Sequence record: OR352941.1
Source of the DNA: Escherichia phage AV111
Length of the DNA: 64,000 nt
Strand: one strand, 5' to 3'
Part shown: piece by piece, positions 4,428-62,342 of the stretch
Position numbering within the stretch: position 1 is the stretch's first letter
Layout: each line of letters starts with the position of its first letter
Notes under the pieces: model-generated
What the model saw: only the letters and a program-made list of their open reading frames with translations
Databases searched by the model: none
What the model was told of the DNA's origin: nothing
Made by a program: the position numbers and the translations under genes

Positions 4428-4471
4428 GCTAATTTCCTCAATTGATTAATGTTTTTGTAATCCATGAGAGC

Positions 4472-4500
4472 ATTATACTCTGCTCTCAAGAGTTTGTACA
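4472..4500 (-). promoter_or_regulatory. early promoter upstream of ndd (-35 TGTACA, 17 nt, -10 TATAAT)
   Basis: hexamers read from sequence. Confidence 0.55.
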
Positions 4501-4503
4501 ATT

Positions 4504-5218: not shown

Positions 5219-5244
5219 GATGTTATCCTCTTTTAGATAGGACT

Positions 5245-5274
5245 ACTATATCATAGTCCTACTTAGTTGTAAAC
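5245..5274 (-). promoter_or_regulatory. early promoter (-35 GTTTAC, 18 nt, -10 TATAGT) with AGGACTA/TAGTCCT repeat around the -10
   Basis: read from sequence. Confidence 0.5.
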
Positions 5275-5286
5275 ACTTTTATGAAA

Positions 5287-6087: not shown

Positions 6088-6103
6088 GGGGACCGAAGTC
6101 CCC
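6088..6103 (-). terminator. intrinsic terminator GGGGAC-UUCG-GUCCCC plus U6 tract, downstream of rIIB
   Basis: perfect 6-bp stem, UUCG loop, UUUUUUCUUU tail on minus RNA. Confidence 0.65.
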
Positions 6104-6108
6104 AATTA

Positions 6109-7044
6109 TTATTCTGCAAATAATTCAGTAACGTCTGAAATTACTTCATAACGACAAGTACGCATCTTAGCATCACCATAGTCAACTGGGATAGATACAA
6201 CATCACGTGGATGAACTTTAACCTTAACAACTTTATCTGAGCTAGAACCAAAGTAACGAATATATGATTTAGCACAAACATGTAGACCACGGGAGCAGGT
6301 TTGAGTATCATCATCGTTAACACGAGTACGAGGCATTGAAACAACTTTACCAGGCGAGTTATCAAATGTGCCGCTATAGCAATCTAAATAGTCTTTACGA
6401 ACTACTTTCCACGCATAGAAATGCCCATCTTCAGTGATTTCAATATCGTTTGCAACCAAGAAGTCGAATAAACGTTGTACAGCTTTTTCGCTTGGGTTTT
6501 CTAACAGGTTTTCAAGGAACGGCAGATAGAATTTAAAGTCTTCGCCTTTTTCCATGGAATCAATAATACGATTAACCAGTCCTGAACGAATCTCTATACC
6601 TTGATAAAATAAACTACCACCTTCAATAGTAACATTACCATCAACAAACTTAGTAATAGCTTTCTTGATGTTAATAAGTTCGACAGCTTTACTAAGGTTT
6701 CCTGCGACCAGATTAGCTTTAATTTCTTCAAAATTTGCATGACTTGATGGGGTCGCATTGTATGCTACGCGTCCTTCAATAATTGAAATAAATTTAGATG
6801 ACGCGTTCCATACGATTTCAGGACGATGTCCGCCGATAATAGGTTCATCATTTTCTGGGACCTGTTCTTCGTCTTCAAATTCAGCTGCTTTCTCTTCAGC
6901 TTTAAAATTCTTAACAATCTTACGAAGAGTATCTGTTGAAATGTCAAAGTAATCGGCAATTTCTTTACGGGTCCATTTGCCTGATTTAACCAGGCCATAA
7001 GCTTCTAACTGTTCTTCTTGGGACAAGCATTTGATATTGTACAT
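6109..7044 (-). CDS. rIIB: rIIB protein
   Basis: 311 aa; MYNIKCL... N-terminus and length match T4 rIIB; coupled to rIIA. Confidence 0.9.
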   Translation of the reverse strand: MYNIKCLSQEEQLEAYGLVKSGKWTRKEIADYFDISTDTLRKIVKNFKAEEKAAEFEDEEQVPENDEPIIGGHRPEIVWNASSKFISIIEGRVAYNATPSSHANFEEIKANLVAGNLSKAVELINIKKAITKFVDGNVTIEGGSLFYQGIEIRSGLVNRIIDSMEKGEDFKFYLPFLENLLENPSEKAVQRLFDFLVANDIEITEDGHFYAWKVVRKDYLDCYSGTFDNSPGKVVSMPRTRVNDDDTQTCSRGLHVCAKSYIRYFGSSSDKVVKVKVHPRDVVSIPVDYGDAKMRTCRYEVISDVTELFAE

Positions 7045-7053
7045 AATGTTTCC

Positions 7054-9267
7054 TTATTTGGCCGCTTCCACGGCCTTCATGAATTTAACGATTTGAGCGA
7101 CCTGTTCTTTGGAAAGAGTACCACGTCGTCCCATGTATTCTGACACAATATGATAATTGGTTTCGAATTCAATAACCATTTTATCATCATTATCGTAAGC
7201 ATTATCTTTAAGCTTATCGAAAATTTTAGCACACAATTCTAACTTCCTGTTCAGGTCTCTGTTATCAGCGCCTGCGAATCGATTCCATCCCCAGCGATTA
7301 TTTACTGTTGAGAGTTTTGCAAAGTCTTTACTGATTTCTTTGTTCTTAGAGCTAAAATACTTACTAAGGAAGTTAAGCTCTTCATTACGAGTAATATGAT
7401 TCAAATAAGGCTGTGCTCTACGACTTGGTGATACATACTCATCATAATCTACTTTATCGATTAGCATAATATAGTCATTAATTGATTTTTCAAACAAGCA
7501 TTCTACTTCACCAAGTTTACGAACTTTCTTAGCAATCTGTGGGCGAACTACAGTGAACTCTTTAATACCTGACAAATCGGCAATACGAGTCAAGAAACTA
7601 GAATCATAGTTCAACCAACCTTTATCTGCGTCAAGACATTCGGCGTTAGAACGATTACGAATTACAACATAACCTTGAATCTCATCAGCTTTACCGGCCG
7701 GAATAAAGAGATCTTCTGATACCCAAACATCGTTTTCATTCTTAAAGAACCGATGAGCACTTGGGGATTTAGGACGAGGTTGCGATGAACGTTCTTTAAC
7801 TTCAATCCACGGTTTAACTAATGCAAGAATTTCAGAGGTCTTATAAAATTTAAGGCTATCACCAGCGAAAATAACCTTTAATCGTTCCAGAAGTTTCATT
7901 GCAACTTCATCTTCCGGGTTAATGAATAATACGCTACTACCCCGTCCGGAAGGAACCTTATCAACGAGTGTTGATGCATCTGTGGAAGTCAAAGCATCGT
8001 TCAGAGCACGCATCATGGGTACGCGGCCTTTCACATCGTCAATAACAATATCAATATGCTTACGACTAATACCTAGCAGGCTATTAATTGAAATAGTTGC
8101 AGACGAGCTTCCGCTTTCACGAATACGACGAAGTCGTGGGTCTGAAACGATATCGTATACAACACCAAGGTTGCACCATTCAGGTCCCATTTTAAAACGT
8201 TTGTACAACTCGGAATAAGTTAGTTGTTCTTTAGAGTATTTCAGTGATTCAATATTAGACCCGGCTTTTTCCATGTATTTACGAGCAGAGTAACCAAGAG
8301 AATCGATTTCACGGAATACATGACGTGGATATTCACAATCAATCCATTTCTTAGAATCTTCAGCAAATAATTTTGCATCGATTTCTGCAACGCGTTTATG
8401 GATATTTGCTACTGTACGTTTATCAAATGACAATGCTTCACGAGACGGGGCTACATCTAGTTCACCCATAGGGAATTTAATATAAGCTGTAGTGCATCGC
8501 GTCATCATCCATGTTTGTTCTTTAATAACACTTCCAATTGGATATACAATACCACCGTAAACAGCCATGATATTACCACGTTCACCCCATGGAGCTTCCT
8601 TGGCCAAATATACATCGTCAAATTCAGGGAAGTATTTAATATCTTTAACACCACGAACTTCTGCAATATCACCTAGAGGACGCATAACATATGCAATTTC
8701 GGATGCGAACTTTTCAAAATCTTCTGGGTTAACAGGCACAACTACTTCAACGCCGGTCCGGTCATCAGGACCCATCTTATCTACAAAGGTCGGCTTAATT
8801 TGTGGACCCGTGTCATCTTGGTAGATTACGTAACCACGAACTTCGCCGTTGTGATAAGACGTAAGGTTAAACGTATCGGTATATGCTAGCGGAGCTTTAG
8901 AGCCGAGTCCGAATCCACCAATGAAATCGTTACTCGATGTTTTAGTTGAAGCAAAATATGAGTTATAGATTCCTGGCTCTTCGTCATTACCTCGAATGGT
9001 GAAATCACTCATACCAGGACCAAAGTCTCGAACTACAAAACGTGGGTCTAAACGACCTGGAGCCTGAACAATAAACTTATCAGTGCAACCATTAAGAATT
9101 TGTCCATCAATACAGTTTGTGATTAATTCACGTACACAAGCCAATTCTTTGTTTGTATAAAGGTCGTTAGACAAAATCTTATAAACTTTGCTATTGCCTT
9201 GAATAGTGAATGCTGTGCTCTTACCGCCTGAACCAATAATCGTTTCTTTAGCCGTTTCAATAATCAT
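7054..9267 (-). CDS. rIIA: rIIA protein (GHKL ATPase-like N-terminus)
   Basis: 737 aa; synteny and N-terminal similarity to T4 rIIA. Confidence 0.92.
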   Translation of the reverse strand: MIIETAKETIIGSGGKSTAFTIQGNSKVYKILSNDLYTNKELACVRELITNCIDGQILNGCTDKFIVQAPGRLDPRFVVRDFGPGMSDFTIRGNDEEPGIYNSYFASTKTSSNDFIGGFGLGSKAPLAYTDTFNLTSYHNGEVRGYVIYQDDTGPQIKPTFVDKMGPDDRTGVEVVVPVNPEDFEKFASEIAYVMRPLGDIAEVRGVKDIKYFPEFDDVYLAKEAPWGERGNIMAVYGGIVYPIGSVIKEQTWMMTRCTTAYIKFPMGELDVAPSREALSFDKRTVANIHKRVAEIDAKLFAEDSKKWIDCEYPRHVFREIDSLGYSARKYMEKAGSNIESLKYSKEQLTYSELYKRFKMGPEWCNLGVVYDIVSDPRLRRIRESGSSSATISINSLLGISRKHIDIVIDDVKGRVPMMRALNDALTSTDASTLVDKVPSGRGSSVLFINPEDEVAMKLLERLKVIFAGDSLKFYKTSEILALVKPWIEVKERSSQPRPKSPSAHRFFKNENDVWVSEDLFIPAGKADEIQGYVVIRNRSNAECLDADKGWLNYDSSFLTRIADLSGIKEFTVVRPQIAKKVRKLGEVECLFEKSINDYIMLIDKVDYDEYVSPSRRAQPYLNHITRNEELNFLSKYFSSKNKEISKDFAKLSTVNNRWGWNRFAGADNRDLNRKLELCAKIFDKLKDNAYDNDDKMVIEFETNYHIVSEYMGRRGTLSKEQVAQIVKFMKAVEAAK

Positions 9268-9279
9268 ATTTTTCTCTCA

Positions 9280-9480
9280 TCACAAGTTACGTTTAAAAAT
9301 TTCTGCTACTTCAAGAAGTTCTTCTTTAGTAGCTGTATCGGTTTGTATTTTATATCGAATTTCCTTAAAGCGTTCTTTAAAGGCTTCAGCTGATTCGATA
9401 TCAAAAAATCTTTGGATAAGCCGGAATTCCCGGAGCACTGCTTTATCAAAAAGTTCCAAGTCCACGTTATACGTTCTCAT
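9280..9480 (-). CDS. hypothetical protein (66 aa), rIIA.1 position
   Basis: ORF in track, GAAGAG RBS. Confidence 0.5.
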   Translation of the reverse strand: MRTYNVDLELFDKAVLREFRLIQRFFDIESAEAFKERFKEIRYKIQTDTATKEELLEVAEIFKRNL

Positions 9481-9505
9481 AATATTCTCTTCAGTAGATT
9501 CCTAG

Positions 9506-9556
9506 GGCACTATTACTAAAGACCATATAATTTATCATCTTATGTGTAATAGTGCC
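9506..9556 (-). promoter_or_regulatory. perfect 11-bp inverted repeat GGCACTATTAC/GTAATAGTGCC with a 29-nt loop containing a TATAAT-like element
   Basis: seen in sequence between glycosyltransferase gene stop and ORF 9280..9480 start. Confidence 0.4.
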
Positions 9557-9572
9557 TCAGGCGATTCAGGAT

Positions 9573-10673
9573 TTACGCTGTGAAGATTTTATCCCACATC
9601 GCAACAACTGCATCTCGATTATACTTCTTCCATACTGCTTCAGCACGTTTAACTCGAGCTTCGTATGTGTCAGTGAATTCTAATACAGCTTTTGTGTAAA
9701 GCGCAACTACTTCTTTCTTAGGAGTAGAGGAATCAATTTCTACACGCACAGTATCTGGGTCGTATTCGAATGTCGCATGAGGATAATCCTTAAAAACTAA
9801 CTGGATTACAGGGACACCTTTAGAAATGGCTTCAATAGAACTATTCTCTACCGTACCTGTGTCAGGACACGTATTAATAAGTGCTTTAGCTGTTTTAAGA
9901 CGTTCCATGATTTCACTGTGTGGAGCATCAATAATAACAGGATATTTAGCTGGTGGTGCCCATTTGCTTGGACAATAACCAATACCATTTTCGCCTAGTG
10001 CTTTAATTGCTTCAAGAGCAACATCAGTGCGACGCATCTTAGTGTCATAACGTTGAGCACTAATAATCAAATCAGTTGCCGGGAGAACTTCTGGCTTTTC
10101 AGACAAACAAATAACCGGGTAGTCATCAGGTTCAAATAATGGATTTTCGCGCCAGTAGTCATAATCAATTTTGTCAGTCAGACCTGAAGTCATATAACAA
10201 TATTTGCGTTCAAATTCACGGAAGGCTTTAGTAGGAGCATAGCTCTTCCCGCCGTTCTTGTGAATCTGGATAGTCTGATCCCAAATTTGAACAATACCAC
10301 GAGACACCGGTTCAAACGGCGTAGCCATAAAATTCTTATGAACTTTAGAGAGTCCAGCATCTTTAATTGCCTGAACGGTTAGTTTAGTCGGTTCCATAGT
10401 AACAACAAAATCGTATTCATGGATGCCGGCTAGTTCAACAATCTTACGAGCCATAGTATAACTCATACCTAGACTGAATTTAGTCAGATGACCAACAGGA
10501 TGATGATTAACCTTCCAATCACCAAACGTGTCATTATCAAAGCCGATATAATCAATATCAGCACCGATGGACACAAGATATTTCAACACATTTAAATGTA
10601 CTGCTTCAAGACCACCTTGTACACGGTCAGGATTAAATGGGACTGCACGAGATGGGATAAACATAACTTTCAT
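9573..10673 (-). CDS. GT-B fold glycosyltransferase-like protein; candidate DNA (hydroxymethylcytosine) glycosyl/arabinosyl-transferase
   Basis: 366 aa; C-terminal motif TGTVENSSIEAISKGVPVI resembles the GT4/GT-B donor-binding motif; lies next to rIIA where the proposed RB69 arabinosyltransferase maps (recollection). Confidence 0.55.
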   Translation of the reverse strand: MKVMFIPSRAVPFNPDRVQGGLEAVHLNVLKYLVSIGADIDYIGFDNDTFGDWKVNHHPVGHLTKFSLGMSYTMARKIVELAGIHEYDFVVTMEPTKLTVQAIKDAGLSKVHKNFMATPFEPVSRGIVQIWDQTIQIHKNGGKSYAPTKAFREFERKYCYMTSGLTDKIDYDYWRENPLFEPDDYPVICLSEKPEVLPATDLIISAQRYDTKMRRTDVALEAIKALGENGIGYCPSKWAPPAKYPVIIDAPHSEIMERLKTAKALINTCPDTGTVENSSIEAISKGVPVIQLVFKDYPHATFEYDPDTVRVEIDSSTPKKEVVALYTKAVLEFTDTYEARVKRAEAVWKKYNRDAVVAMWDKIFTA

Positions 10674-10699: not shown

Positions 10700-10717
10700 A
10701 AGCTCCCGAAGGAGCTT
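10700..10717 (-). terminator. terminator-like hairpin AAGCUCC-UUCG-GGAGCUU overlapping the HNH gene stop
   Basis: 7-bp stem, UUCG loop, U-rich tail. Confidence 0.55.
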
Positions 10718-11513
10718 AGGACATCCAACACATTTTATAACCTTTGCAGGTTCTGTTAGGATTATTTAATGCTTTCAATATATTAGAAGACCCTATATCT
10801 AAATACTCTCTTAATTCATAAAGATAGTTAAAATCAATAGTTTCACCTGTTTTTACACTTGTGATTCTTATAGGCCTTCTTTCATATTTAGATTTATACA
10901 ACTCTCTAGTCTTAGCTTTAGTTTCTTCTGACCTAGGAGTGTATGGTTTAAATCCTTTTGTTTTAAATGTTTCCATTCTTGATTTAGTTATTTTATCCCG
11001 GTGTTCTTTTGTTTTTACAGGTGCTTTTCGCCCATTCTCCCGAGATAACTTGTTGGCCTGTATTATTTTATCTATTGCTTCTTGCGTATGAGTTTTACCA
11101 TAAAATGGATTTAATTCGCCTATACGTTGTGAAGCAATATGTGACATTAATTCTCTTGTTGCTTTAGTATGTTTTTTACCTTTAAATGGGTTGCCATTTT
11201 TAGCAATCCATTCTTTCATAAATCTAGAGTGCTCTTTAGAGAATTCTTGTTTAAGCCAATCATAATCTCTAGAATTTCTAGCTCCCATGTAAAAAGCTCT
11301 AATAGCCATAAGCATAGAACGGTTCTTATGAATTTTATAAAGCAATAAATGGGCGATAAAATGCTCTCTAGGGGTCATTTTAACTAGATTTGATTTAGCA
11401 TTACTCCCGCCCATAGATTTAGGCAAAATATGGTGAGTTTCAGTATAATTAGGAATAGTGCTGCGGTTTTTAGCCGCAGCGATAAGTTTATCATAAATTT
11501 TACGATAATTCAT
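10716..11513 (-). CDS. HNH homing endonuclease (Mob-like, NUMOD repeats)
   Basis: HHILPKS...NLV..T..EH HNH motif; ATG at 11513 overlaps gene 39 stop (TAATG); track ORF start is an upstream alternative codon. Confidence 0.8.
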   Translation of the reverse strand: MNYRKIYDKLIAAAKNRSTIPNYTETHHILPKSMGGSNAKSNLVKMTPREHFIAHLLLYKIHKNRSMLMAIRAFYMGARNSRDYDWLKQEFSKEHSRFMKEWIAKNGNPFKGKKHTKATRELMSHIASQRIGELNPFYGKTHTQEAIDKIIQANKLSRENGRKAPVKTKEHRDKITKSRMETFKTKGFKPYTPRSEETKAKTRELYKSKYERRPIRITSVKTGETIDFNYLYELREYLDIGSSNILKALNNPNRTCKGYKMCWMS

Positions 11514-13333
11514 TATCCTAGCATCCAATCTTTACGGAGTTCAGGGTCGTTACCCATGAGCATTTCAAATAGTTCTTTCCAATTTTCAGGAAGTTTAACT
11601 ACGTCGTACACAGGGTTTTGAATCATTTCTTTATATTCATCTCGCTGAAGTGAGCCCAATCCCTTGATGTATCGAATACTATGCTTAGGCAGTGTATCTT
11701 TAACTTCTTCATACTCAGCTACAGTATAAAACCATTTTTGAGTTTTGCCAATTTGTGCAATAATTACAGGCGTTTTAACAAAGCGAATACGTCCTTGTTC
11801 AAACAATTCAGGCCAATTACTAAAGAAAGCAAGCAAAGCCGGATAAATGCTTCCAAGACCGTCATGATCGGCATCGGTCATAATTGCAATATTACGATAG
11901 TTCGTATTCTCTGCCTTTTCACCAAGAATAAGACCTGTGATAGCACAGATATCAAAGAGCTCTTTGTTCTTCATCATATCAGCATATGACATACCCCAGC
12001 TATTCATCACCTTACCACGTAATGGGAATCCGCCGTGTAGTTCACGGTCACGAACATCAATGAGATAACCAATTGCCGAATCACCTTCTGTTAAGAACAA
12101 TGTTGTATCTGCATCTTTACCACATTGGTTAGCTTTAATATGCTTATGAACCTTAGCTTTAGTTGCCTTTTTAGCTGCTTTAGTTTCTGCAGCCTTTTCT
12201 GCTGCCAATTTACGAGCTAATGCTGCTTCAACAATAGGCATAATCAAGGCTTCGTTTTTAAGAAGTGCCTGAGCAATTTTCTTAGCATCTAATTGGATAT
12301 GATTACGAATATCACCATACGTTGACGTTAAACGTTCTTTAGTCTGAGAATCAAAACGCATGTTGCTCATGTCTCTAATAAACATCAACATTGTGAGACA
12401 TTCTTTAACACGAGCTTTAGTGACTTCAATACCCTTATATTTCTTTTTAATACCTGGCAAAAGATGTTCGCAGATATCATCCATTACGCATTCAACATGA
12501 TGACCGCCGTTTTTAGTATGGATGTTATTCACATAAGTTAAATGACGGAAGCCATCTGGTGATGTTGTGAATGCTATAGAGACTTTATCATTTTCTTGAA
12601 TGATGTTATCTTCACCAAATTGTTTAGCAAATCGTTTAAAATTACCATCAACCTTTTTACCATTAAATGTGAACTTGATATCAGGATAAACGACTGCCAA
12701 TGTTTGAAGTCGATCTAAAGTAATATCTAAATAAATTTGAGATAAATTATGCTCTTCAAATGAAGAGAAATCAGGAGTGAAGATTACTTTAGTGCCTTTA
12801 CATTTAGATTTCTTAGAAGACCATGATTTGTTTTCCATTCCGTTTGAACAGTTAACAGTGATTTCATTTTCGCCATCTGACGTGATGCCTGTAAACAACG
12901 TAGAGAAGATATTAGTTAAACTACTCCCGACGCCGTTCATACCACCAGTCTTGCGTTCAGAATCATCACCAAAGTTACCACCAGCCTTTGGAATAGTCCA
13001 GGCTGCTACAGGCCCAGGAATTTGTTCACCTGTTTGGTCGGTAACTAAACCTTGAGGAATACCACGTCCGTTATCTTCCACCGAAACTTGATTATTTTTA
13101 ATTTGCACGTCAATTTTATTTGCAAACTTAAATGATGTACGAATAGCTTCATCAACCGAGTTGTCAATAATCTCATCGATTAATTTAACCAGACCAGGAA
13201 CATATTCAACTTGTTGATATTTACCAAACAAAAAACGCTCGTGGGCTTCTTTGGCCGAAGAACCAATATACATGCCACTACGTTTCTTAATATGTTCTAC
13301 ATCTGACAGTACCTTAATTTCATTTTTAATCAT
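11513..13333 (-). CDS. 39: DNA topoisomerase II large subunit gp39 (fused 39+60 ORF)
   Basis: 606 aa GyrB-like; MIKNEIKVLSDVEHIKKRSGMYIGSS matches T4 gp39; single ORF covers the region split into 39 and 60 in T4. Confidence 0.93.
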   Translation of the reverse strand: MIKNEIKVLSDVEHIKKRSGMYIGSSAKEAHERFLFGKYQQVEYVPGLVKLIDEIIDNSVDEAIRTSFKFANKIDVQIKNNQVSVEDNGRGIPQGLVTDQTGEQIPGPVAAWTIPKAGGNFGDDSERKTGGMNGVGSSLTNIFSTLFTGITSDGENEITVNCSNGMENKSWSSKKSKCKGTKVIFTPDFSSFEEHNLSQIYLDITLDRLQTLAVVYPDIKFTFNGKKVDGNFKRFAKQFGEDNIIQENDKVSIAFTTSPDGFRHLTYVNNIHTKNGGHHVECVMDDICEHLLPGIKKKYKGIEVTKARVKECLTMLMFIRDMSNMRFDSQTKERLTSTYGDIRNHIQLDAKKIAQALLKNEALIMPIVEAALARKLAAEKAAETKAAKKATKAKVHKHIKANQCGKDADTTLFLTEGDSAIGYLIDVRDRELHGGFPLRGKVMNSWGMSYADMMKNKELFDICAITGLILGEKAENTNYRNIAIMTDADHDGLGSIYPALLAFFSNWPELFEQGRIRFVKTPVIIAQIGKTQKWFYTVAEYEEVKDTLPKHSIRYIKGLGSLQRDEYKEMIQNPVYDVVKLPENWKELFEMLMGNDPELRKDWMLG

Positions 13334-13355
13334 GTTGTCTCCTCGTTATGAAGGT

Positions 13356-13380
13356 ATTCTATCATCCGAAATCTAAAGCA
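13356..13380 (-). promoter_or_regulatory. MotA-dependent middle promoter for gene 39 (MotA box TGCTTTA, 12 nt, -10 TAGAAT)
   Basis: read from sequence; fits the T4 middle promoter pattern. Confidence 0.55.
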
Positions 13381-13384
13381 AAAA

Positions 13385-13395
13385 GGGCCGAAGCC
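13385..13395 (-). terminator. short GGC-UUCG-GCC hairpin plus U5, downstream of ORF 13397..13822
   Basis: seen in sequence; weak stem. Confidence 0.4.
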
Positions 13396-13396
13396 A

Positions 13397-15226: not shown

Positions 15227-15252
15227 ATTATTCTCCTCTGGTTGATGTGGTT

Positions 15253-15281
15253 ATAATATCAAAACCAGAGGAGAAGTAAAC
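15253..15281 (-). promoter_or_regulatory. early promoter (-35 GTTTAC, 17 nt, -10 TATTAT); spacer arm pairs with the RBS
   Basis: 11-bp perfect inverted repeat TTCTCCTCTGG/CCAGAGGAGAA spanning 15231..15275. Confidence 0.55.
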
Positions 15282-15285
15282 AACT

Positions 15286-16769: not shown

Positions 16770-16800
16770 AATGTTTTTCCTGTTTAGTTAAGATAAAAAG

Positions 16801-16830
16801 ATTATACTACAACCAAGGATGGTTGTAAAC
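16801..16830 (-). promoter_or_regulatory. promoter (-35 GTTTAC, 18 nt, -10 TATAAT) with spacer palindrome CAACCA-AGGA-TGGTTG
   Basis: read from sequence. Confidence 0.55.
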
Positions 16831-16835
16831 TGGTT

Positions 16836-26156: not shown

Positions 26157-26347
26157 TTACAAAGATTGCTTTGTCACCATTTATATCTGTGACTTCATAT
26201 GTAGTGCCTTCATACTGTGGAATATTCCAAATTACACCGTCATTAGCTTTTACGCTAATATGGCATTAGTGTTTTGAAACAACTTCATAATCTTCAAAAC
26301 TTGTAAAAACACTAATTTTAGAACCAGTGCAAATTGCAGTAGTCATT

Positions 26348-27293: not shown

Positions 27294-27322
27294 TTTAACT
27301 CCTTAGTTGATTTGATAGGACT

Positions 27323-27352
27323 ACTATACCATAGTCCATCTATAATGTAAAC
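27323..27352 (-). promoter_or_regulatory. early promoter (-35 GTTTAC, 18 nt, -10 TATAGT) with AGGACTA/TAGTCC repeat
   Basis: read from sequence. Confidence 0.5.
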
Positions 27353-27356
27353 AAGT

Positions 27357-28815: not shown

Positions 28816-28841
28816 TTTGTTCTCCAGTAGTTGATAGGTCT

Positions 28842-28870
28842 ATAATAACACAACTACTGGAGAAGTAAAC
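28842..28870 (-). promoter_or_regulatory. early promoter (-35 GTTTAC, 17 nt, -10 TATTAT) inside a 14-bp inverted repeat that pairs the spacer with the RBS
   Basis: TTCTCCAGTAGTTG/CAACTACTGGAGAA perfect repeat spanning 28820..28864. Confidence 0.55.
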
Positions 28871-49187: not shown

Positions 49188-49210
49188 ATTATTTCCTCAT
49201 TAGTTAATTC

Positions 49211-49234
49211 ATTCTATCATCCGTTTATAAAGCA
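49211..49234 (-). promoter_or_regulatory. MotA-dependent middle promoter for gene 47 (TGCTTTA, 11 nt, -10 TAGAAT)
   Basis: read from sequence. Confidence 0.55.
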
Positions 49235-49239
49235 AAAAA

Positions 49240-49257
49240 GGAACTCCGAAGAGTTCC
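49240..49257 (-). terminator. intrinsic terminator GGAACUC-UUCG-GAGUUCC plus U6
   Basis: perfect 7-bp stem, UUCG loop, U-run; abuts the stop of the small ORF upstream. Confidence 0.65.
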
Positions 49258-51933: not shown

Positions 51934-51996
51934 GATATTTTCCTCATTTTAAGACGATAGGAAGATAATAACATGTCTTCCTATCATTGTACATTA

Positions 51997-61268: not shown

Positions 61269-61296
61269 AATATTTTCCTCTCGTTAAGATAGATTC

Positions 61297-61326
61297 ATTA
61301 TACTCCAACCATCCTTGGTTGTAAAC
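61297..61326 (-). promoter_or_regulatory. promoter (-35 GTTTAC, 18 nt, -10 TATAAT) with spacer palindrome CAACCA-TCCT-TGGTTG
   Basis: read from sequence. Confidence 0.55.
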
Positions 61327-61330
61327 CGTT

Positions 61331-62287: not shown

Positions 62288-62313
62288 TTTATATTCCTCA
62301 TGTTGAAAAATTT

Positions 62314-62342
62314 ATTATACTCCAACCATCCTTGGTTGTACA
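62314..62342 (-). promoter_or_regulatory. promoter (-35 TGTACA, 17 nt, -10 TATAAT) with the same spacer palindrome CAACCATCCTTGGTTG
   Basis: read from sequence. Confidence 0.55.

Follow-up and report, generated by a model that had tools for sequence, protein, structure and literature searches.

A genus-wide hairpin upstream of rIIA.1 in Mosigvirus phages, a possible structured element of the polycistronic message

RNase III hairpins are found in phage T7, as the R-sites of the early mRNA, and in phage lambda, at the sib and N-leader sites, and after cleavage there the upstream RNA keeps a hairpin that protects its 3' end. To our knowledge, such sites have not been established as a feature of T-even mRNAs. 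T4-like phages carry PeSLs, promoter-early stem-loop cassettes in which an early promoter is combined with a stem-loop and which often lie at indel boundaries (Arbiol et al., 2010, PMC2839356; Comeau et al., 2014, PMC4122927). Degraded half-PeSLs, with the stem-loop kept and the working -10 gone, have been described near indels (PMC4122927). In T4, hairpins sequester the translation initiation regions of genes e, soc, 49 and I-TevI (reviewed in PMC3014915). For RB69, 58 early and 32 middle promoters were predicted, none of them between 156 and 5498 (Nolan et al., 2006). Here we compare with these systems a hairpin upstream of rIIA.1 in Escherichia phage AV111 (OR352941.1); the window referred to below is the whole stretch of 64,000 nt that was analysed. 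A literature search found no paper on the spacer that contains the hairpin, RB69 arabinosylation papers included, and no Mosigvirus transcript-mapping paper.

Locus and predicted fold

A 1.8-kb query around the hairpin retrieved 163 phage records at 90-99% identity, nearly all of them Escherichia or Shigella Mosigvirus, and by these matches the source genome is a Mosigvirus, an RB69-like T-even phage. Genes on the minus strand follow each other in the order 60plus39, homing endonuclease, RB69ORF003c-like gene, spacer, rIIA.1 and rIIA. The gp60plus39 topoisomerase subunit is encoded at 11513-13333, the NUMOD3/HNH homing endonuclease at 10716-11528 and the RB69ORF003c-like protein of 366 aa at 9573-10673 (stop codon 9573-9575). 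A spacer of 92 nt (9481-9572; RB69 equivalent 2428-2519) separates the stop codon of this glycosyltransferase gene from the ATG (9478-9480) of rIIA.1 (9280-9480, 66 aa), the first gene past the hairpin, which is followed by rIIA (7054-9267) and rIIB (6109-7044). Near the hairpin the minus strand carries every gene, and in the whole window the plus strand has 4 of the 101 crudely called genes. A Pfam search with the RB69ORF003c-like protein returned no family; its counterpart in phage AlbertHofmann is annotated as a putative hmC-arabinosyltransferase, and among coliphages the gene is found in Mosigvirus only. The rIIA.1 protein matches Pfam family PF24210 (T4_RIIA1, E = 3.7e-30). Just upstream of the RB69ORF003c-like gene, the minus strand holds a UUCG-tetraloop hairpin with a U-rich tail (10700-10717), which equals the RB69 TransTerm terminator 'RB69ORF003c<--60plus39'.

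The spacer contains a perfect 11-bp inverted repeat, GGCACTATTAC at 9506-9516 and GTAATAGTGCC at 9546-9556, with 29 nt between. A sequence-only reading of the window had reported such a repeat between the glycosyltransferase stop and a small ORF before rIIA; the repeat was recovered at exactly these positions and the small ORF is rIIA.1. Complementarity reaches 16-nt arms (9501-9516 and 9546-9561), interrupted by a single A.C mismatch and including one G.T pair. In the sense RNA, transcribed from the minus strand, CCTGAGGCACTATTAC (9546-9561, perfect core 9546-9556) is the 5' arm and GTAATAGTGCCCTAGG (9501-9516, perfect core 9506-9516) the 3' arm. Within the 29-nt loop (9517-9545) an inner helix is predicted between 9533-9541 and 9519-9527, with 5 + 3 bp around a G.G mismatch and an apical loop of 5 nt at 9528-9532. 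Outer stem and inner helix together would form an irregular helix of ~24 bp. In the predicted 61-nt hairpin, stems of 4, 11, 5 and 3 bp follow each other from base to tip; a 1x1 mismatch separates the first from the second, a 4/2 internal loop the second from the third and a further 1x1 mismatch the third from the fourth, and 5 nt form the terminal loop.

For the 98 nt of sense RNA that reach from the stop codon to the start codon, the folding energy is -27.6 kcal/mol (z = -4.7), and none of 200 shuffles folded as well. The MFE structure of this RNA is also the centroid structure, and the hairpin was retained when 301 nt were folded. The other forms fold somewhat less well (z = -3.2 for the antisense RNA and -4.1 for ssDNA). 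The hairpin starts 11 nt past the ORF003c stop and ends 20 nt ahead of the rIIA.1 start codon. Its 5' flank, ATCCTGAATCG (9562-9572), runs from the glycosyltransferase stop to the hairpin base and has a common C/A polymorphism at 9563. The 3' flank, AATCTACTGAAGAGAATATT (9481-9500), is the rIIA.1 translation initiation region; it lies outside the helix and contains an SD-like GAAGAG at 9487-9492.

Across the window, perfect repeats of 11 bp are by themselves not rare: with loops of up to 60 nt, four were observed, and dinucleotide shuffles gave 1.43 ± 1.48. From the shuffle expectation, the probability that one falls inside this 92-nt spacer was calculated arithmetically as ~0.002. Three of the four lie in short non-coding spacers, and two of these three (15231-15275 and 28820-28864) are clearly regulatory cassettes. 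The fourth (26265-26316) has the same geometry as the spacer hairpin, but is not a clean parallel because it lies inside DNA annotated as ORF033c in RB69.

Compared with the RNase III sites of T7 and lambda, the spacer hairpin as predicted is likewise an irregular helix of about two turns with an asymmetric internal loop between cistrons. Helices at such sites have ~20 bp or more and often an internal loop, and the predicted fold provides 4 + 11 + 5 + 3 bp and the 4/2 loop; there is no sequence similarity between them and the spacer hairpin. With the T4 hairpins that sequester translation initiation regions it shares an intercistronic position and a 5' strand that can be excluded from transcripts starting inside, and two cassettes of the window (15227-15285 and 28816-28870) fit that design. 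The spacer helix, however, ends at 9501, leaving GAAGAG and ATG unpaired in both the MFE and the centroid structure; the rIIA.1 SD and AUG are 8-20 nt outside it, and no promoter was found in its 5' strand or loop. Searches of Rfam 15 gave only chance-level matches (E >= 1) in 9000-10000 and none at gathering score anywhere in the window, and a tRNA search returned nothing.

Search for promoter and terminator signals in the spacer

The loop holds a perfect TATAAT at 9526-9531, which the sequence-only reading had linked to a promoter for the rIIA operon. The element is present, but on the plus strand, antisense to rIIA.1 and rIIA, and a -35 partner is absent (TAGGGC at 17 nt). It is invariant in the 30 sequences inspected, which is not significant on its own. 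On the minus strand, 9529-9537 reads as an extended -10-like string, TGATAAATT (TGATAGATT in most Mosigvirus), with an A/G polymorphism at hexamer position 3. It is similar to GATGATAGAAT, which occurs in two MotA-type promoters of the window, but has neither MotA box nor -35. An alternative sense-strand reading is ATTACA-N17-TATGGT. Both candidate -10 hexamers are polymorphic (TAAATT/TAGATT and TATGGT/TATAGT/TACGGT/TACAGT), and a consensus sigma-70 scan of 9200-9800 gave no promoter-like site and no 9/12 match on either strand.

The promoters of the phage itself served as a standard. Inter-gene gaps of the window were catalogued, and 19 early promoters were extracted and turned into a two-block matrix (PWM). 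These promoters are stereotyped, with an A-rich tract, (G)T[TG]TAC[AT], a 16-17 nt spacer often ending in TGn, TAnnnT and 'ag.cctatca', and in 16 of the 19 the ATG is 27-32 nt past the -10. They scored 13.4-41.4 bits (median 31) in leave-one-out analysis, and the T4 site upstream of rIIA.1 scored 12.6 bits on the same Mosigvirus matrix. The best score in the Mosigvirus spacer was -6.9 bits, and 412 distinct sense-strand sites in the 64 kb are as good, about one per 155 nt. The candidate -10 is 41-48 nt from the ATG, and upstream of the candidate promoter the sequence is CGCCTGAGGCAC, which is GC-rich and not A-rich. An early promoter in the loop was rejected on the basis of this matrix and the consensus scan. 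The MotA box (a/t)(a/t)(a/t)TGCTT(t/c)A, placed 11-13 nt ahead of TAnnnT, was found at 11 sense-strand sites in the window and at none in the spacer, and GCTT is absent from 9481-9572. The T4-type late box TATAAATA is on neither strand of the spacer, which reads GATAAATT (GATAGATT in most genomes) in sense and TATAATTT/TATAATCT in antisense orientation. Lacking these boxes, a MotA middle promoter and a late promoter were both rejected. The spacer is among neither the 58 early nor the 32 middle promoters predicted for RB69, and the proposed rIIA-operon promoter in the hairpin was not upheld on either strand. A TATAAT in a hairpin loop is no evidence of a promoter when the strand is wrong and the promoters of the phage are highly stereotyped.

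The sequence-only reading had also likened the hairpin to promoter-embedded hairpins elsewhere in the window. Such cassettes exist, and ~20 are clearly of the PeSL type, but the spacer lacks their stereotyped layout. In local alignments with 24 cassettes its best score was 22, versus 20.0 ± 2.5 for shuffles (P = 0.23), and a decayed copy of an early-promoter cassette was rejected since the alignment is no better than with shuffles. The motif GATGATAnnnT, picked after it had been seen, has seven sense-strand copies and no antisense copy in the window: three in real promoters, three in coding DNA and one in the loop. In common with PeSLs, the hairpin is a stable intergenic stem-loop of the early region next to a lineage-specific gene, ORF003c and the spacer both being specific to Mosigvirus, and -35- and -10-like strings overlap its arms and loop. 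It differs in its 16-bp stem and 29-nt loop (usually 6-9 bp and 4-8 nt in PeSLs), its longer leader, the missing A-rich upstream tract, its single copy and a family similarity that is not significant. A sigma-70-type early promoter of the form TTTACW/TTGACA - N16-17 - TAYWAT/TATAAT is absent, as are the AT-rich tract and the stereotyped distance to SD and ATG. Because the promoter, the upstream tract, the spacing and the family similarity are all wanting, we did not file the hairpin as a PeSL.

Nor is the hairpin a classical terminator; the sequence-only reading had offered a terminator or a processing site for the glycosyltransferase transcripts as possibilities. Intrinsic terminators combine a GC-rich stem and a loop of 3-8 nt with a U-run directly 3' of it; here the loop is 29 nt long, and both strands lack a U-run after the stem (sense CCCUAGGAAUCUAC, antisense CUCAGGCGAUUCAGG). 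A scan for intrinsic terminators in 9200-9800 found zero terminator-like sites, and TransTerm called none at the spacer in RB69. The recognisable terminators of the phage are UUCG-tetraloop hairpins followed by U-runs, for example at 10700-10717 and, after rIIB, at 6088-6103. These terminators or stabilisers resemble the spacer hairpin in lying just past stop codons in the same operon, but their stems are GC-rich and 6-9 bp long, their loops have 4 nt and a U-run follows, none of which applies to the spacer hairpin.

Distribution, variation and alternative explanations

The spacer DNA is confined to Mosigvirus (154 records, 94-100% identity, one copy per genome), and the hairpin is present in all 154 matching records. 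The hairpin arm has no second copy in the window; with this and the single place per genome, a repeated or mobile element was rejected. A metagenome scan for further hairpin variants yielded only four extra copies, all near-identical. At 15 loci of other T-even genera, whose rIIA.1 proteins are 64-76% identical, rIIA.1 abuts or overlaps the upstream CDS, leaving no spacer and no hairpin. An equivalent hairpin upstream of rIIA.1 was found in none of the other T-even genera, most of which are without any spacer. T4 is the exception with a 54-nt spacer between gene 60 and rIIA.1 (AF158101 2404-2457), TAG TTTACT ttaccacaaggatgtgg TATAAT ... ATG, which is a canonical early promoter (TTTACT-N17-TATAAT) with a small hairpin of 7 bp and a 4-nt loop (TACCACA/TGTGGTA) between -35 and -10. 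The T4 spacer thus shares with the Mosigvirus spacer the genomic position and the presence of a hairpin, but there is no detectable homology between the two, and the upstream gene is 60 in T4 and ORF003c here. The closest ORF003c homologues outside Mosigvirus are in Acinetobacter phages, 43% identical and at a different genomic location, with an ordinary UUCG-tetraloop hairpin downstream. A hairpin travelling with the glycosyltransferase gene was rejected because these homologues are followed by a UUCG hairpin instead, and for the same reason the large hairpin belongs to the Mosigvirus-specific ORF003c/rIIA.1 junction.

To follow variation, 30 Mosigvirus versions besides that of the window were collected, the most divergent being picked on purpose. 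Over 13 distinct sequences 98.3% of the cells are paired and 18 of 23 pairs never vary. Compensatory changes on both sides of a pair were not seen among them (0), and at the low divergence of these sequences proof by covariation is impossible. Pairs are broken in RB69 (A-U to A.C), GADS24 (C-G to C.A), WFbE185 (C-G to A.G), three genomes with a basal C-G to C.C change (G>C), and moha and MM02 (A-U to A.C in the inner helix). Two changes are tolerated in the sense RNA, namely G-C to G.U in ESCO47 and A-U to G.U in HY126. The 5' arm has two variants among the 30 genomes, C22A, which breaks a pair, and A23G, which gives G.U; an apparent invariance of the left arm in the first 16 genomes failed on wider sampling. 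The inner helix is invariant in the 13 distinct sequences, with one disruptive variant, T51C, in the wider sample. In the AV109 lineage, five phages of one study, a CT>TC change in the 3' arm removes both imperfections and produces a perfect 16-bp palindrome. G.U-compatible transitions showed no strand preference (three fit the sense RNA and four the antisense RNA).

Selection was assessed by comparing site classes within the same 20 genomes. Third-codon positions of the two flanking genes, the reference, were variable at 39 of 128 sites (30%). Unpaired hairpin positions (5/15, 33%) did not differ from this reference, whereas paired positions varied about threefold less (5/46, 11%; OR 0.28, P = 0.0096). 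The spacer outside the hairpin, mostly the rIIA.1 initiation region, was variable at 1 of 31 positions (3%, P = 0.0009 versus third-codon positions), and 9481-9500 showed no variation in any genome inspected. The constraint on paired positions is, if anything, underestimated, because the genomes had been chosen for hairpin variation. Within the hairpin the difference between paired and unpaired positions is a trend only (P = 0.10). Constrained stems with free loop bases are what is expected of a structural element; from a sequence signal in the loop, a -10 box for instance, the reverse would be expected. As paired positions vary less and unpaired positions vary in a neutral-like manner, the structure and not the loop sequence is conserved, and from these comparisons the hairpin appears to be structurally constrained. 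Templated correction of one arm by the other in the DNA could lower arm variability by a route free of selection, and the AV109 lineage represents one event of this kind.

That the hairpin is a relic without present function, a quasi-palindrome at the ORF003c/rII junction kept by recent ancestry and templated correction, is the strongest of the rival explanations, although we consider it unlikely. At a divergence of only 1-5% within the genus here, the occurrence of the hairpin in every member proves little; single disruptive changes are found in several isolates, and no compensatory change accompanies them; the two-base change that perfects the palindrome in the AV109 lineage is a classic signature of template switching; and chance alone would give ~1.4 repeats as good as this one in 64 kb. 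Against a relic are the low variability of paired relative to third-codon positions of the same genomes, which unpaired positions do not share, and the conservation of the inner helix as well. The low chance of a repeat within these 92 nt and the company of the comparable repeats, three of four in short non-coding spacers and the other two of these three regulatory, also speak against it. A site acting at the DNA level, bound by a dimeric protein, targeted by recombination or a nuclease as a cruciform or hairpin, or used as a crossover point for module exchange, appears quite improbable to us. Its perfect symmetry, reading the same on both strands, the unusually stable ssDNA fold, the lack of an RNA-strand preference in the G.U analysis and the position at a genus-specific gene boundary, which fits the recombination role proposed for PeSL stem-loops (PMC2839356), would suit such a site. 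A single copy per genome, however, offers no recombination partner, half-sites 40 bp apart with a conserved inner helix are unlike an operator, and gene content has no breakpoint at the hairpin, the nearest being the presence or absence of the homing endonuclease 1.1 kb away. A replication origin was rejected, as T4 oriA maps near soc and not at the rIIA.1 spacer (PMC3016281).

Among explanations based on transcription signals, which rank around the DNA-level site in our confidence (relic, PeSL-like promoter, DNA-level site, intrinsic terminator, antisense promoter, in falling order), a PeSL-like composite comes first and is doubtful. It would place a weak, atypical promoter for rIIA.1-rIIA inside the hairpin, at TGATAAATT/TGATAGATT or at ATTACA-N17-TATGGT, with the stem attenuating read-through from upstream, and so moves the promoter of the sequence-only reading to the correct strand. 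Points for it are the T4 early promoter with its embedded hairpin at the same position, the many window cassettes with a hairpin around an early-promoter -10, the sense-strand bias of GATGATAnnnT with one copy in the loop, an indel-boundary site as for PeSLs together with the degraded '1/2 PeSLs' of the literature (PMC4122927), and the lack of any other predicted promoter between the terminator after gene 39 and rIIA. Set against these are a matrix score that hundreds of sense-strand sites equal, a simple scan without a 9/12 sigma-70 match, no MotA box or -35 at the right distance, GC-rich DNA upstream, an ATG too far from the candidate -10 when compared with real cassettes, polymorphism of both -10 candidates in a loop that evolves neutral-like, and a likeness to real cassettes that is not significant. 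We regard an intrinsic (Rho-independent) terminator closing the glycosyltransferase transcripts as very improbable. A stable hairpin does follow soon after the stop codon, and an RB49 PeSL stem-loop lowered expression of a downstream reporter (PMC2839356); besides the long loop, the missing U-runs and the negative scan and TransTerm results, termination at the hairpin would strip rIIA.1 and rIIA of any predicted promoter. Least probable of all is a promoter at the plus-strand TATAAT, yielding a short transcript that would be antisense to the glycosyltransferase gene at its 3' end. Its -10 hexamer is perfect and unchanged in all 30 sequences inspected, but the invariance of six positions, two of them paired, is not significant at the site-class rates found, the -35 is absent (2/6 at 16-18 nt), there is no TG extension, the scan did not call it, it is unlike the T4-type late box, and the plus strand carries few genes.

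A possible element of the polycistronic message

We tentatively favour, at somewhat less than even confidence, a functional structure of the sense RNA in the polycistronic mRNA, serving as a processing site, a decay barrier or an attenuator; for any specific enzyme acting on it our confidence is much lower. The processing site suggested in the sequence-only reading comes close to this view and is plausible. The hairpin is best filed with the intercistronic mRNA stem-loops of T-even phages. According to this model the element would be part of an early/middle message that runs on the minus strand through 60plus39, (the homing endonuclease), ORF003c, rIIA.1 and rIIA. The nearest predicted upstream promoters lie before gene 39 (window 13334-13396; RB69 Pm:5538 and Pe:6863). 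Read-through transcripts would start at the middle promoter there, which corresponds to RB69 Pm:5538 (13334-13396), and at more distant early promoters upstream, pass the leaky terminator at 10700-10717 and then enter the spacer. They must cross it because no promoter is detectable between that terminator and rIIA, and the sense RNA must contain both arms because all genes of the region are on the minus strand. RNA rather than DNA would then be the active form, and the sense strand the relevant one. The 61 nt of message would fold into the long irregular hairpin and leave the rIIA.1 ribosome-binding site free. Since the inner helix does not vary in the 13 distinct sequences, the whole ~24-bp helix, and not just the 11-bp core, is likely to matter.

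Such a structure may be a double-stranded site processed in the manner of RNase III sites, may block 3'-exonucleolytic decay or may partly attenuate read-through, and in each case the accessory glycosyltransferase message would be uncoupled in fate and abundance from the conserved rII message. Some observations point away from the favoured reading: compensatory changes are missing and single disruptive changes are tolerated in several isolates, the G.U transitions are strand-neutral, the comparison of paired with unpaired positions stays at P = 0.10, and arm templating is possible. A more specific version, in which the hairpin is a dedicated dsRNA processing site or 'insulator' that came in together with the arabinosyltransferase gene or evolved once this gene had been inserted, strikes us as distinctly unlikely. 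The message would in that case be cut or shielded at the hairpin, giving the DNA-modification gene and the conserved rII genes different mRNA lifetimes, and Mosigvirus would hold an intercistronic site of the RNase III type, a kind of site not established in the mRNA control of T-even phages.

The wider significance is limited, as the element is single-copy, belongs to one genus and has a predicted role. If the favoured reading is true, the RB69 regulatory map, which in this region now consists of promoters and U-tract terminators only, would gain a post-transcriptional signal. A processing or stability element at this junction would also illustrate how a newly acquired DNA-modification gene may be fitted into an old conserved operon with rII expression undisturbed, T4 providing the contrast of a promoter placed at the same spot.

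The hairpin upstream of rIIA.1 and its gene neighborhood

A variant of the hairpin upstream of rIIA.1, with a CT>TC change in the 3' arm, was found in one lineage consisting of AV109 (OR352939; positions 301-371), AV114, AV115, AV116, and AV118. With this change the repeat loses its imperfections and becomes a perfect 16-bp palindrome, a pattern characteristic of quasi-palindrome template switching. An in-frame TAG is also lost through the same change, and as a result the annotated rIIA.1 of this lineage is lengthened upstream to a GTG within the hairpin; the lengthened gene carries the label 'rIIA lysis inhibitor'. Another perfect inverted repeat of 11 bp, with an inner helix and a 30-nt loop, is present at 26265-26316, and its geometry is the same as that of the hairpin upstream of rIIA.1. 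It lies inside a 218-nt stretch in which the window has only ORFs of 32 amino acids or fewer. This stretch corresponds to ORF033c in the RB69 annotation and shows 60-80% identity in Dhakavirus-type phages.

The proteins encoded on either side of the rIIA.1 region, the ORF003c-like putative arabinosyltransferase (9573-10673) and rIIA (7054-9267), are each widely conserved among phages, and neither gave a Pfam-A match at E ≤ 0.01. In phage LH01 (PP434429, 2520-2696) the annotated gene in the place of ORF003c is 177 nt long, compared to 1101 nt elsewhere; the glycosyltransferase gene could be truncated or frameshifted there, or the annotation could differ. Between the glycosyltransferase gene and 60plus39 lies a NUMOD3/HNH homing-endonuclease gene (10716-11528, minus strand) that is present in some Mosigvirus genomes only. 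The matching records are of two kinds: those that cover the full query and have 'homing endonuclease' annotated, and those that end at query position 1728, where the topoisomerase gene immediately adjoins. As listed, the homing-endonuclease ORF has a TTG start and shares 16 nt with the end of 60plus39.

PeSL-type cassettes and related promoters

Seven minus-strand spacers of the window (4428-4503, 5219-5286, 16770-16835, 27294-27356, 51934-51996, 61269-61330, and 62288-62342) clearly form one family of the promoter-early stem-loop (PeSL) type. These cassettes are short (55-76 nt) and contain an early promoter, T[TG]TACA-N16/17-TATAAT/TATAGT/TATTAT, with a 6-10-bp hairpin that is located either between the -35 and -10 elements or wrapped around the -10. 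After the promoter comes a conserved start region, 'ag.cctatca', and the ATG is found 27-32 nt downstream of the -10. PeSLs are on record for RB49/phi1, T4/PST, and nt-1/KVP40 (PMC2839356, PMC4122927); no description for Mosigvirus was found in the literature.

The promoter subtype with the hairpin in the spacer is common to Mosigvirus and T4. The window version (16801-16829, 61297-61325, and 62314-62342), TTTACA ACCAAGGATGGTTGGAG TATAAT, resembles the T4 version upstream of rIIA.1 (AF158101, 2404-2457), TTTACT TTACCACAAGGATGTGG TATAAT, and the loop region CAAGGATG is found in both.

Terminator units and long-armed cassettes

Two near-identical minus-strand units (13334-13396 and 49188-49256) consist of a MotA-type middle promoter, TTTTTGCTTTA ... 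GGATGATAGAAT, preceded by a UUCG-type terminator hairpin and its T-run. The unit at 13334-13396 lies upstream of gene 60plus39 and matches RB69 Pm:5538.

Two further minus-strand cassettes (15227-15285 and 28816-28870) have long, perfect arms, 13 bp with a 19-nt loop in the first and 14 bp with a 17-nt loop in the second. In both, TTTACT lies directly upstream of the 5' arm and TATTAT within the loop, and the 3' arm includes the Shine-Dalgarno sequence (GAGGAG and GGAGAA, respectively) of the gene that follows. The ribosome-binding site would be sequestered in read-through RNA and would not be sequestered in RNA begun at the internal early promoter. These cassettes share the logic of T4 genes e, 49, and I-TevI, in which, however, the promoter is late instead of early.
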